NCBI GenBank assembly: GCA_963790475.1
Contig: CAWBOS010000010.1
Span: 96,001-160,000 of the forward strand
Direction of reading: 5' to 3'
DNA: 64,000 nt
From: an uncultured delta proteobacterium
GTDB lineage: Bacteria > Desulfobacterota > RBG-13-43-22
Shown: positions 38,447 to 43,257 of the stretch, piece after piece
How positions within the stretch are numbered: position 1 is the first letter of the stretch
Layout: the number at the start of each line of letters is the position of its first letter
Made by a program: the position numbers and the translations under genes
The notes under the pieces: model-generated
Told to the model about the DNA's origin: nothing
What the model saw: the letters and a program-made list of their open reading frames with translations, nothing else
Databases searched by the model: none

Positions 38447-38718
38447 CTTGGATCCTCCTTTCTCTTCTAAGAACGATTATTTTGAAGAGCTGCTCTTTAT
38501 GTCAAAAACTATATGAAGTCTTATTATAAGGATTGTAAAGGCTTTTGTAAAGGAGAGGGTTAATAATTTTTGGCTTGACAGGGTCCGAGGGAGGTGGGAG
38601 ATTTGGATGCAGGCAAGAGGCATGACGTTCTTAATAATACCTACTTTGAGTATTCGACACAATTTTGAATTTTGATTCCTGGATTCCTGAGGATAATTTT
38701 AAAATTGAAAGCCAATCC

Positions 38719-40635
38719 ATGAAACAGATTATTCTCGGTACTGCCGGACATATCGATCACGGCAAGACCAGCTTAGTTAAGGCCATGACCGGGATAGATA
38801 CCGACCGCCTTAAAGAGGAAAAAGAGCGGGGAATCACCATCGAACTGGGATTTGCCTATTTGGATCTTCCTAATGGCCAGCGTCTGGGAATTATCGATGT
38901 CCCCGGGCATGAACGTTTTATCAAAAATATGGTGGCCGGAGCCAGTACCATCGACCTGGTGGCCTTGATTATTGCCGCCGATGAAGGGGTCATGCCCCAA
39001 ACCAGGGAGCATTTGGATATTTGCACCCTCCTGGGTATTAAAAAAGGTCTGGTGGCCTTGACCAAAATCGACTTAGTCGAAGAAGATTGGCTGGATCTGG
39101 TTCAGGAGGATATCAAGGAATTCTTGAAGGGGACCTTTCTGGAAGGAGCTCCGATCCTTCCGGTCTCATCGGTTACCGGCCAGGGAATTTCTGAATTGAC
39201 GGTAGTCCTGGAAAGGCTTTCGGGCGAGGTAGAGGAACGTTCTTCTGCCGGCATCTTCCGGCTGCCGGTGGACCGGGTCTTTTCCATGCGCGGGTTTGGT
39301 ACGGTGATTACTGGTACGACCATGTCCGGCAGCCTGTCCGTGGGGGAGCAGGTTTATATTTATCCCCAGGAGATCCAGGCCAAGGTCCGCGGGATTCAGG
39401 TCCACAATCAGGATACTGAACAGGTCCGGGCCGGTCTGCGCACAGCCATTAATCTGCAAGGAATTGAAAAGGCCACTGTAAACCGGGGGGATGTGGTTGC
39501 CTCTCCTCTGAGTTTGTATCCGACCCGATTGTTGGATATCCAGGTGCGCTTACTGAAATCCATTCCCAGACCCTTAAAAAACAGGAGTCAGATACGTTTT
39601 CACAGCGGGACGAACGAAATCCTGGGCCGGGTTATCCTTCTGGAAAGCGAAGAAATAAAACCTGGCGAATCCCAGTTCTGCCAGATACGTTTCGGCGAAC
39701 CGGTGGCCTTGTTGCCCGGAGACCTGGCCGTAATTCGCAGCTATTCGCCGGTCCAGACCATTGGCGGAGCTGAGGTTTTGAATGTGAAACCGGGCAAGCA
39801 TAAACGTTTCAATCCCGAAGTGATTCATCAACTCCAGGTCCTTAAATCCGGCAGCGATTCGGAAAAAGTAGCCCTGCAAGTCCTCCAGAGCGGGGCAACC
39901 GGGGTGTCCCGGAAGAATTTGGGACAGGTCCTGCCCCTTCCCCCGAAAAAGTTGGATGACCTGCTCAAAGAGCTCCTTTTCCAGAAGGTGCTCGTTCAAT
40001 GGGACAAGGAAAATAAAATCATTATCCATCAACAGGAGTTGTTCAAGCTGAGCCAGGCGACCCGGTCGGAATTGGAAGGATATCATAAAGCCAATCCCTT
40101 AAAGTCCGGATTGTTTAAGGAAGAATTAAAATCCCGTCTGCCTCAAATTCGAGAGGCCAAACTTTTTAATTTTGTTTTAAATCAACTGGCCGAGCAGAAT
40201 ATTTTGGTTCAGGAAAAGGAACTGGTTCGACTGACAGACCATAAGGTGCAGTTAAAGGAAGACCAACAGGCGGTCCGGGATTCGCTGGAAAAGGTCTATC
40301 TAACCAGCGGCCTCCAACCTCCCTATTTCAAAGAACTGGCTGAAAAATTCGCCAAAGGGCAACCCCGGCAGGTTTTGGAATTGATGGTCAAGGAAGGAAA
40401 ATTAGTCAAGGTTAAAGAGGACCTTTATTTTCACAAACAGGCCATCGAAGATCTCAAAAGAAACCTGATCCAGTGGCTGAAGGAAAAAGGAGAAATCACT
40501 ACCCCGGAATTTAAAGATATGACCCAGACTTCGCGGAAATATACTATCCCTTTATTGGAGTATTTTGATGCTCTTCAGGTGACCATGCGGGTCGAGGACA
40601 AGCGGCTCCTTCGGGAGAGTAAGAAGTCGGTTTGA
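38719..40635 (+). CDS. selB: Selenocysteine-specific elongation factor
   Basis: [32 protein letters not shown]; C-terminal winged helix [13 protein letters not shown]. Confidence 0.97.
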
Positions 40636-40842
40636 TTTCAAGCCGGATATCATTTAGCACTCTTCTTTTTAACCCTATAGAATTTTTCCGTGAGCCAAAG
40701 AAGACCCGTCGCATCAAATAAGACCCCATAGTCCCTTTTCCCTTTTGCTCAGACTACCCGGAATCACCGGACACATCAGACCGATGATTTTATTCGTCGA
40801 AATAGGTCTGTGGCCAGATAAATACTTCGAATTAAATATCCC

Positions 40843-40872
40843 TTGACTTACCCTATCCAAAAAAAATAGTAT
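40843..40872 (+). promoter_or_regulatory. Putative sigma70 promoter
   Basis: TTGACT-18nt-TAGTAT upstream of the CMD gene. Confidence 0.45.
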
Positions 40873-40904
40873 TCCTCCCAACAAAAAATGATAGGGAGGA
40901 ATGT

Positions 40905-41465
40905 ATGCGGCTTAAAGAACCCCGGGTGAAACCTTTGCCTGAATCGGAATGGACTGAAGAACAAAAAACGCTTCTTGAATATTATCGAAGAAAGTCCGGC
41001 AAGATATACAATATTTTTCTGACCCAGGCCCGACATCCTGAATTGATGAAAAAATGGAGGACCTTTTCCGATTATATCCTAAACCAAACCAGCCTTCCTG
41101 AAAGGGACCGCGAAATCCTGATATTACGTACCGGCTGGCTTTGCCAGTCGGAGTACGAGTTTGGACAGCATACCCGCATTGGAGAGAAGGCTGGGTTAAA
41201 ACCGGAGGAGATTGTAGAAATTACTAAAGGCCCCGATGCCCCGGGGTGGAGCCCTTTCGACTCTGCCCTGCTGCGGGCCGCGGATGAACTCCATGCCGAT
41301 GCCTTCATCTCCGATGTCACCTGGGATGTGCTGTCCAAGCGATACGACGAAAAGCAAATGGTGGATCTAGTCCTGACCGTAGGACAATATACCATGGTCT
41401 CCATGTTTCTGAATACCTGCGGCGTTCAGCTGGACCCCAAATTGGTCGGTTATCCTAAAGCCTGA
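40905..41465 (+). CDS. Carboxymuconolactone decarboxylase/AhpD-like protein
   Basis: NIF.T.ARHP, REILILRTGWLCQSEYEFGQH, LLRAADELH, TVGQY. Confidence 0.88.
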   Translation: MRLKEPRVKPLPESEWTEEQKTLLEYYRRKSGKIYNIFLTQARHPELMKKWRTFSDYILNQTSLPERDREILILRTGWLCQSEYEFGQHTRIGEKAGLKPEEIVEITKGPDAPGWSPFDSALLRAADELHADAFISDVTWDVLSKRYDEKQMVDLVLTVGQYTMVSMFLNTCGVQLDPKLVGYPKA

Positions 41466-41478
41466 AGAGAACAATTCC

Positions 41479-41703
41479 ATGACGCCGATAATTATCTATG
41501 GAAAAGACGGCTGACCTTTTACCCGAAAGGCCCGTGAGACCTATCAGGCCCAAGGAAGAGAAATCTTATATTACAATCTTCCGGACCATCCGGAAAAGAT
41601 CGCAGAGTTCCTTTTATTTTCTCCGGATCGAAAGGTTCCGGTGGTCGTGGAAAATGGCCAGGCGATCATCGGATACGGGGGGACATGAAGGATAAAAAAT
41701 TAG
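41479..41703 (+). CDS. Glutaredoxin-like selenoprotein with two Sec codons (UXX-star-like; absent from ORF track)
   Basis: MTPIIIYGKDG-U-PFTRKARE...RKVPVVVENGQAIIGYGGT-U-RIKN*; TGA at 41512 and 41686 in frame, TAG at 41701. Confidence 0.85.
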
Positions 41704-41717
41704 GCCGGGTCCGGTTT
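41702..41717 (+). promoter_or_regulatory. Putative SECIS hairpin overlapping and following the stop codon
   Basis: AGGCCG-GGUC-CGGUUU, 13 nt after the second UGA; GGUC loop as in the E. coli fdhF SECIS. Confidence 0.65.
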
Positions 41718-41972
41718 TAAAATCAACCGCCGTTTCGCTGTTTATCGCAATGGCTTCACCAGGATGACAAGATTGTTCGGACGACAAGCGGTTATTTTTG
41801 GGAGACGGGACAGGGATGTTTTCCTGGGCGAAGGACCTGCAAATAGTCGGGATTGAGATCGGGCAGGGGAAGGGTCTTCCTTAAAAATTCGGATTACCAA
41901 TCTAAATTTTCAAGGGGCACTGGGGAGAAGAAGGCTATGGATTGAACGGGAAAAAATTAGATTGTTTTATGT

Positions 41973-42659: not shown

Positions 42660-43247
42660 TTAATTCTTAAAGAGCGTCTTGCTTTCTCTATGCAGCCTCA
42701 CATGATAGGGGAAAGAGCCTATCAGTATTTCCATCTCCGCAGCCTCCCGTACGGAAAGGCCATCTGCACCGAGTTTCCGACCATAGTATCCGTTGGCCAC
42801 CACTGTTGCAGCAGGCCCTATCCATTGCACGAGGTCCTTTGCGTTCCCGGCTTGCAGATACATACTGATGTCGTTGATGAAAAGGATGTCCTTTCCTGTG
42901 CGCCGAAACTCGTCAAAGAGGGGATCGATTTTTCCCCTGTTTTCCCGGGCCTTCATGACGGCCTCTTCGTCGGTCTTCGATGTCAGCCGGGGAGGTCTGA
43001 GTATTGCAGTCAGATAGACCACATCCGTCCATCCGGCAGCCATCAGCTTTCCTCCTACCCCTTTGATGCCCCTCTGTAAGGCAATCTCTTTAGGAATCTC
43101 CGGCGCCATATCTACAATCACGATTCGGGATGAGAGGCCGCGACTGCATAATCCTTCCATGATGTTTCTCGCCAGCGTCGTTTTCCCTGTGTTCACATCC
43201 CCGGTGATCAGTATCTGCTTGCCAAGCACATCCTTTGGCTCTGCCAT
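42660..43247 (-). CDS. Uncharacterised P-loop NTPase-like protein
   Basis: ILITGDVNTGKT, LFIND; RBS AGGAGG. Confidence 0.7.
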   Translation of the reverse strand: MAEPKDVLGKQILITGDVNTGKTTLARNIMEGLCSRGLSSRIVIVDMAPEIPKEIALQRGIKGVGGKLMAAGWTDVVYLTAILRPPRLTSKTDEEAVMKARENRGKIDPLFDEFRRTGKDILFINDISMYLQAGNAKDLVQWIGPAATVVANGYYGRKLGADGLSVREAAEMEILIGSFPYHVRLHRESKTLFKN

Positions 43248-43257
43248 AGACACCTCC

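Follow-up and report, generated by a model that had tools for sequence, protein, structure and literature searches.

The window analysed here is a stretch of 64,000 nucleotides from an uncultured delta proteobacterium (assembly GCA_963790475.1, contig CAWBOS010000010.1, positions 96,001 to 160,000). It contains a short glutaredoxin-like reading frame crossed by two in-frame TGA codons and located immediately behind a carboxymuconolactone decarboxylase (CMD)/AhpD-like gene, downstream of selB. This locus raises two questions: are both TGAs of the small gene read as selenocysteine (Sec), and does its product serve the protein encoded by the CMD gene, as an earlier note made from the sequence alone had proposed? 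On the first question, we consider it very likely that the small gene is real and overlooked by ordinary gene callers, and that it encodes a 74-residue truncated glutaredoxin-fold protein in which both UGAs specify Sec, as a tail-extended form of UXX-star family 1.

The CMD open reading frame (ORF; 40905-41465, plus strand) ends with a TGA, and the ATG at position 41479, 13 nt farther on, begins the small gene (41479-41703, plus strand), which consists of 74 sense codons followed by a TAG stop at 41701-41703. Codons 12 (41512-41514; context G-U-P-F-T) and 70 (41686-41688; context G-G-T-U-R-I-K-N) are TGA, and the deduced protein carries the motifs IIYGK, UPFT and RKVPVVV. The start, the length, the glutaredoxin motifs and the second UGA, four residues before TAG, are where the earlier note had placed them. 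The elements of the small gene, including the selenocysteine insertion sequence (SECIS)-like hairpins, are the following:

41479..41703, plus strand: predicted glutaredoxin-like selenoprotein gene (NF041114, 85 bits; PF00462, 33.3 bits)
41512..41514, plus strand: first predicted Sec codon, U12, in U-P-F-T at the N-terminus of helix 1 (homologue column TGA or Cys)
41528..41542, plus strand: SECIS-like hairpin position of the first UGA, 5-bp stem and 5-nt loop CGUGA (family comparison)
41686..41688, plus strand: second predicted Sec codon, U70, ahead of R-I-K-N and the TAG stop (homologue column always TGA)
41702..41717, plus strand: 6-bp SECIS-like hairpin of the second UGA with loop GGUC, 41708-41711 (family comparison)

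An extension of CMD translation past its stop codon into the small gene was rejected, as the two reading frames, 574 nt apart (1 modulo 3), are not the same. The only listed ORF that overlaps the small gene has 65 codons and lies in another frame (41498-41695, plus strand); a standard gene caller would miss the 74-codon frame and report this ORF instead. A search of protein databases returned only three public calls, all without names and all ending at the second TGA; protein matches are few and shortened because gene callers stop at TGA. One of these public proteins, P0002 of a relative (63 aa), starts like the 65-codon ORF and then switches to the true frame, which it follows as far as the second TGA. 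The UXX-star gene is thus missed or shortened by annotation in metagenome-assembled genomes (MAGs) of uncultured Thermodesulfobacteriota.

The small protein was scored against family profiles with TGA read as Cys. It reached 85.0 bits against NF041114, "UXX-star selenoprotein family 1" (cut-off 72), with profile positions 1-70 aligned to residues 4-72, and this score bears out the kinship with UXX-star selenoproteins that the earlier note had suggested. In a six-frame search in which stops cost score, the small gene still obtained 70.7 bits with NF041114; the parent model NF041212 gave 66.5 bits (cut-off 66) and the Pfam domain Glutaredoxin, PF00462, 33.3 bits. The NF041114 profile ends two positions past the U, meaning that the tail is included in the curated family. 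The UXX-star families were reportedly named by Haft and Tolstoy in 2025 (mSystems). A table of the 2026 selenoproteome review lists NF041114 as "Distant Grx-like protein 1" (Grx, glutaredoxin), with motif UxxT and 2 Sec (PMC13188914), and "Distant Grx-like protein 1" with UxxT is already found in a portion of the 2022 selenoproteome review (PMC9312934). The words "distant Grx" are absent from the main text of the article to which the review attributes the family (Zhang and Gladyshev 2008; PMC2398784), and the BSepDB paper (PMC13326102) makes no mention of UXX, Grx-like or glutaredoxin. The two-Sec family and its UxxT motif are therefore already catalogued; the form with a four-residue tail is a clade-specific variant.

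The small protein resembles the other members of UXX-star family 1 in its size (about 70 residues), in its U-P-[FY]-T, cis-Pro and terminal G-G-[ST]-U motifs, and in having two Sec codons with a hairpin past the second; past the first, the hairpin typical of the family is interrupted here by a mismatch. It differs from them in its tail, which is of four residues (R-I-K-N) and not two, and in its location, since in the window's genus the gene sits behind selB. As the tail is U-x4 rather than U-x2, we filed the protein as a tail-extended variant. UXX-star families 2 and 3 and the HUGP/GUXX-star fusion are also glutaredoxin-like with a Sec near the C-terminus, and their hidden Markov models gave weak matches; membership in them was rejected because the scores were far under the cut-offs (NF041211, 35.2 vs 100; NF047338, 39.5 vs 97; NF045501, 30.1 vs 325).

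A search of 41 relatives with the family model (E <= 1e-5) gave matches in 28. In a sample of 401 genomes of the phylum, NF041114 had a match in 114 (E <= 1e-12), 94 of them above the cut-off. Sixty-one loci were parsed, 11 were dropped and 50 were kept for the codon, hairpin and tail counts. The dropped loci were nine weak glutaredoxin-like matches without a phmmer hit at 1e-6 together with L026, which is split, and L032, a glutaredoxin-like selenoprotein of the ordinary type that has a C-terminal helix and lacks the second TGA. Homologues were found to be conserved past the first TGA, and the codon at site 1 was TGA in 43 loci, TGC in 4 and TGT in 3. Site 2 was TGA in 50 of 50 loci, whereas the true stops were mixed (TGA 27, TAA 14, TAG 9). 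The alignment of TGA with Cys that the earlier note had proposed as a check at both sites was thus seen at site 1 (Cys in 7 of 50) and not at site 2; because Cys homologues were seen at site 1 only, the Sec/Cys pair test supports only that site. Two relatives are odd: L143 (G282:C322) has a Tyr at site 1 (Y-P-F-C) and retains the G-G-S-U tail, and L142 (G133:C37) has C-P-F-C, an insertion before G-G-T-U and a tail of seven residues.

The number of residues between the second Sec and the stop was 2 in 34 loci, 3 in 6, 4 in 9 and 10 in one. The 34 two-residue tails consist of Gly, Ala, Arg or Ser followed by Val or Ile, with codons that vary synonymously (for Gly, GGG 12, GGT 6, GGC 6 and GGA 3; for Val, GTC 12, GTT 9, GTG 5 and GTA 4). 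Similarly, in the taxonomic family of the window the long tails are mostly basic-hydrophobic-basic, a pattern kept by means of different codons (AGG-ATA-AAA vs AAG-CTG-CGC). All 16 loci of this taxonomic family have tails of 3 to 10 residues and all 34 loci from other families have tails of 2, and the 16 long-tailed sequences form one group with support 100/98 in a protein tree of 75 columns to which the tail columns contribute a little. From its first residue to the end of the tail, the protein of the window is 72-74% identical to its nearest relatives. One taxonomic family of uncultured Thermodesulfobacteriota thus carries a tail-extended subgroup, whose existence shows that neither the protein family nor a SECIS located past the stop strictly requires the UXX-stop spacing.

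Hairpins past the two UGAs were retained when they had an uninterrupted stem of at least 4 bp, a free energy of at most -4 kcal/mol and a loop containing GG or GU that starts +19 to +26 from the U. Such a hairpin was found at site 2 in 43 of the 50 loci (shuffled mean 3.6, maximum 9) and at site 1 in 27 (shuffled mean 2.1, maximum 6), compared with 1-11 of 48-50 loci at eight control offsets. At site 1 it was present in 26 of the 43 Sec forms vs one of the 7 Cys forms. When a fixed 5-bp stem was imposed at this site on the 50 loci, 79.2% of the cells were paired vs 24-53% with the partner slid, and 12 cells were changed on both sides vs a shuffled mean of 3.2, none of 500 shuffles being as high. 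At site 2, the stems vary across lineages and the loop and the spacing are constant. Because the loop sizes differ among genera, the MAFFT alignment of this site was out of structural register, and a per-sequence hairpin finder was used; a single fixed site-2 structure was dropped for the same reason. The GGUC-loop hairpin described by the earlier note 13 nt past the second UGA is therefore of a kind and at a position that are conserved in 43 loci. On most of the points named by the earlier note as capable of refuting it (conservation past the first TGA, Cys homologues, a conserved second hairpin), the outcome favours its reading of the gene, Cys homologues being seen at site 1 only. In the window the hairpin (41702-41717) has 6 bp, two of them G·U pairs; with the four-residue tail, it begins within the stop codon and lies mostly in the 3' untranslated region. 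In locus L025, the corresponding hairpin lies inside the 10-codon tail. A run of U follows the window hairpin, which could also help to terminate transcription. A scan of 40600-41900 against Rfam (E <= 1) gave no match, a result that says little since, to our knowledge, Rfam holds no bacterial SECIS model.

To place these two sites in a fold, we modelled the small protein with AlphaFold2 from the 50-sequence alignment (predicted local distance difference test 92.9; predicted template modelling score 0.81). The model runs beta1 (4-8), alpha1 (13-24), beta2 (29-33), alpha2 (38-47), beta3 (55-58) and beta4 (61-64), without a C-terminal helix; residues 52-53 and 70-71 each form an isolated bridge of two residues. 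Sec12 is positioned at the N-terminus of helix 1 and the cis-Pro motif is V53-P54. The best Foldseek matches were glutaredoxins, NrdH and methanoredoxin, with template modelling scores of 0.73-0.79, and a profile search aligned the small protein with E. coli Grx3 up to the G-G motif (E 5e-10). The fold, the helix-1 active site, the cis-Pro and the G-G motif are shared with glutaredoxins and NrdH (E. coli Grx3, 1FOV/3GRX; NrdH, 1H75; A. fulgidus Grx, 3IC4). By contrast, the small protein has U-x-x-T for C-x-x-C and, in place of the C-terminal helix, a short Sec-bearing tail, and its scores with TIGR02181 and TIGR02196 are far below the cut-offs. A different Sec-bearing tail is known in animal thioredoxin reductase, where a C-terminal G-C-U-G on a flexible tail shuttles redox equivalents and the recoding signal lies past the stop. 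This enzyme is used here as a working analogy and no homology is claimed: the Sec likewise lies a few residues from the C-terminus, but the fold and the enzyme are unrelated, the bond is a selenenylsulfide vs a putative diselenide, and the SECIS is eukaryotic. The bacterial Sec-glutaredoxins (UxxC) described in the 2026 review (PMC13188914) also have a glutaredoxin fold and a Sec first in the active site. In these proteins a Cys at +3 resolves, the C-terminal helix is normal and the Sec is single, where the small protein has a Thr at +3 and a second Sec in the tail.

This arrangement suggests how the two selenols could work together. Sec12 would be the nucleophile of a monothiol-type U-P-F-T site, and Sec70, carried by the short tail right past the G-G motif, would fold back along the strand ahead of the cis-Pro. 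In complexes of glutaredoxins with glutathione, such as that of Grx3, the strand just ahead of the cis-Pro, to which residues 52-53 correspond here, pairs with the backbone of the cysteinyl residue of glutathione. If the 70-71 bridge pairs with 52-53 in the model, Sec70 would occupy the position of the glutathione sulfur, beside Sec12. Sec70 could then resolve Sec12 as an intramolecular diselenide, in a site having a Thr in place of the resolving Cys, and the small protein would behave as a self-contained redox shuttle or as a chalcogen- or metal-binding shuttle. A diselenide-forming mini-glutaredoxin, if true, would be worth a bench test.

The same protein might alternatively use its two selenols as a ligand pair for a metal or metalloid, as a chaperone or sensor, and form no redox couple. 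Selenols as metal ligands are raised as an alternative in the part of the 2026 review that deals with them (PMC13188914), and an HlyD/CusB-type gene lies downstream of the small gene in 10 of the 16 loci of the window's taxonomic family. Domains of the HlyD type are, however, generic to efflux pumps, the window has no such gene downstream (greA follows, on the other strand) and no metal-resistance gene adjoins the small gene there, and a glutaredoxin fold with cis-Pro and G-G motif fits thiol/selenol exchange. We thus hold the ligand role to be possible but unlikely, and retain thiol/selenol exchange with a putative Sec12-Sec70 diselenide as the preferred function of the two-Sec protein.

Several observations weigh against the reading of both UGAs as Sec, or against the mechanism drawn from it. 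Neither the 50 parsed loci nor 10 more distant ones showed a Cys at site 2, and the homologous loci are related by descent, so that the counts given above overstate independence. The U-x-x-stop that gave the family its name is absent, the protein of the window ending U-R-I-K-N-stop. Taken alone, the window hairpins are not significant against shuffles (z = -1.08, +0.36 and -0.77). The pairing of bridge 70-71 with 52-53, and with it the putative proximity of Sec12 and Sec70, is a reading of the DSSP string. The host genome is a MAG with a contamination of 9.68%. Last, the first hairpin, which had already been called less clear than the second, carries in the window a C·A mismatch between 41531 and 41539 in its stem (41528-41532 with 41538-41542; about -0.7 kcal/mol), and because of this mismatch the host organism may decode the first UGA inefficiently.

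This last point could be extended to the proposal that the small gene is decaying or poorly expressed in the host genome, a G-to-A change at 41539 weakening the first SECIS to the extent that most ribosomes stop at codon 12. The window indeed lacks a site-1 hairpin of the kind defined above, whereas in 13 of the 15 other loci of its taxonomic family the same stem has 5-6 bp, begins at +16 and reaches -5.9 to -8.8 kcal/mol. The A at 41539 belongs to a Thr codon (ACC), and 13 of 15 close relatives have a G there, in an Ala codon (GCC). By eye, the ribosome-binding site of the window also looks weaker than that of the relative L011. On the other side, the frame is otherwise intact and remains 72-74% identical to its nearest relatives up to the end of the tail, the apical CGUGA loop is unaltered, and the first UGA is still followed by an extended mismatched helix (-4.6 kcal/mol) and by an alternative hairpin of -8.0 kcal/mol with the same start. 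Decay is for these reasons improbable in our view. It should be noted that contigs of one DNA sequencing run, in which a fraction of 0.58 of the sampled words was found, match the window and also have the A at 41539, although this position is only 3 nt away from the end of a contig; this run may be the source sample of the window.

The second question concerns the CMD gene, which is placed between selB and the small gene in the following order:

38665..40635, plus strand: selB, Sec-specific elongation factor (TIGR00475, 390.8 bits; cut-off 242.25)
40843..40872, plus strand: promoter-like site TTGACT, 18 nt, TAGTAT (consensus scan only, 9 of 12 matches; no evidence of function)
40905..41465, plus strand: CMD (carboxymuconolactone decarboxylase/AhpD-like) gene, 186 aa, without CxxC (PF02627, 42.9 bits)

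The small gene is therefore downstream of selB, as had been noted. SelB contains the Pfam domains SelB-wing_2, SelB-wing_3 and Beta-barrel_SelB; its ORF starts at a TTG (38665), and since the family alignment begins at residue 22, the ATG at 38719 may be the true start. The gap between selB and CMD is of 269 nt and holds the promoter-like site. The next gene downstream of the small gene is greA, and as it lies on the opposite strand the transcription unit comprises at most selB, CMD and the small gene. The CMD protein shares the domain of the AhpD/CMD family (PF02627) and has neither CxxC nor CxxU; it scored 35.7 bits with TIGR01926 ("peroxidase-related"; cut-off 81.8). An alignment of 87 orthologues upheld the claim that it lacks CxxC: the AhpD-type CxxC(xxxH) is replaced by S82-E-Y-E85 at the two Cys positions ahead of H89, position 82 being S or A and position 85 E among the orthologues. 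Conservation reaches at least 90% for the motif E-Y-E-F-G-Q-H (residues 83-89), whereas no cysteine is invariant, Cys80 being present in 63 and Cys172 in 10 of the 87 orthologues.

It had been proposed from this arrangement that the two-Sec protein is a dedicated redox partner supplying a redox centre to the adjacent CMD protein, the two forming a two-component system. The gap of 13 nt, the common strand, the shared promoter-like site upstream and the lack of a CxxC in the CMD protein all agree with it, as does the order CMD then small gene, which is kept at 7 of the 10 small-gene loci of the window's genus. When the neighbourhoods were examined over the whole family, however, the adjacency was restricted to these loci of one genus (7 of 50 family loci), and counted from the CMD side, with the 80 best orthologue loci and one genome per species, the small gene was downstream in 4. 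Even in the window's genus, nothing separates selB from the small gene at two loci, and a third (L017, G011:C215) has between them a 19-residue remnant matching CMD residues 167-185, which suggests that CMD was deleted and the selenoprotein gene left intact. The absences go both ways. Four other CMD-orthologue loci encode a CMD protein 74-79% identical to that of the window without the small gene downstream, and no NF041114 match was found in those four genomes at E <= 1e-6 (genome completeness not given). Reciprocally, no CMD relative was found at E <= 1e-10 in the small-gene genomes G007 (100% complete), G014 (94%) and G018 (93%), and in G006 and G011 the CMD copies, 54-59% identical, are only elsewhere in the genome. 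CMD orthologues without the small gene are also abundant in MAGs of Acidimicrobiia, Dehalococcoidia and Acidobacteriota, the family offers no invariant cysteine to reduce, and outside the window's genus the neighbours of the small gene are quite different. A dedicated CMD partner is consequently very doubtful; an inference of CMD plus redox partner drawn from the operon fails a two-way co-occurrence test, and the neighbourhood comparison that the earlier note recommended speaks against its own redox module. We conclude from these gene orders that the pairing is a local, genus-level synteny behind selB and not a conserved module, the CMD gene probably being co-transcribed with the small gene in the window without being its obligate partner. 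A restricted version can be imagined, in which within one genus the two-Sec protein was drawn into a selB-linked cassette and works with the CxxC-less CMD protein, acting on the semi-conserved Cys80 or on the ligand of the CMD protein while the lineage-specific basic tail U-[RK]-x-[KR]-x would serve to dock it, and to this we give a similarly small chance.

The least probable of the alternatives considered is that the second TGA is a true stop, which would yield a 69-residue single-Sec protein with the downstream hairpin as a transcription terminator: the lack of Cys homologues at site 2, the short, G+C-rich hairpin followed by a U-run and the public gene calls that stop at this codon would agree with it, but the invariance of TGA at site 2 next to mixed real stops, an in-frame stop exactly two codons farther in 34 of 34 loci outside the window's taxonomic family, tails conserved in type under synonymous codon variation, a site-2 loop in which GG or GU is retained at +20 to +25, counted from the TGA, as it is in the hairpin of site 1, the hairpin of L025 within its tail, a terminator scan that did not call the window hairpin and a curated profile that includes the tail make it extremely unlikely.

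The two-Sec protein thus remains the preferred product of the small gene, and the whole Sec machinery is encoded in the host genome, with tRNA-Sec (74.3 bits), selA (629.5) and selD (394.1) in addition to the selB of the window. The selD gene (G000:C10:1969676-1970587) has one in-frame TGA and is probably a selenoprotein gene itself. A second selA-like stretch (G000:C13:443305-444527) is in two pieces split by a TAA, the intact selA being on C20, and is either a broken copy or a trace of a second organism. A second glutaredoxin-like frame, L002 (G000:C10:1440216-1440401, minus strand), has an in-frame TGA in U-P-E-C and a normal C-terminal helix region, and probably encodes a classical Sec-glutaredoxin. 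A bolder and improbable idea is that the 74-codon ORF with its two UGAs, which follows selB at each of the 10 loci of the genus, could report on Sec-decoding capacity.

As regards RNA, no contig covers the small gene, a search made on assembled contigs only that says nothing on expression; a single contig of a metatranscriptome, 253 nt long and with 7 differences, comes from part of the CMD gene of a relative and corresponds to 40899-41151. For the scan of neighbours of the small gene, the longest ORF to its left and to its right was taken at the 50 loci, which gave 98 ORFs. The HlyD/CusB-type membrane-fusion gene mentioned above encodes 405-463 residues, is on the same strand and lies about 50-250 nt downstream (L009, L010, L014, L015, L016, L018, L020, L021, L023 and L024). 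In six loci of other families (L005, L117, L121, L123, L125 and L131), a protoglobin-PsiE fusion gene is present a few hundred nt downstream, and an HhH-GPD glycosylase gene lies upstream in four (L118, L121, L125 and L131). Farther along the window, an ORF of 197 codons (42660-43253, minus strand) without a Pfam match at E <= 0.001 lies between greA and a major facilitator superfamily transporter gene.

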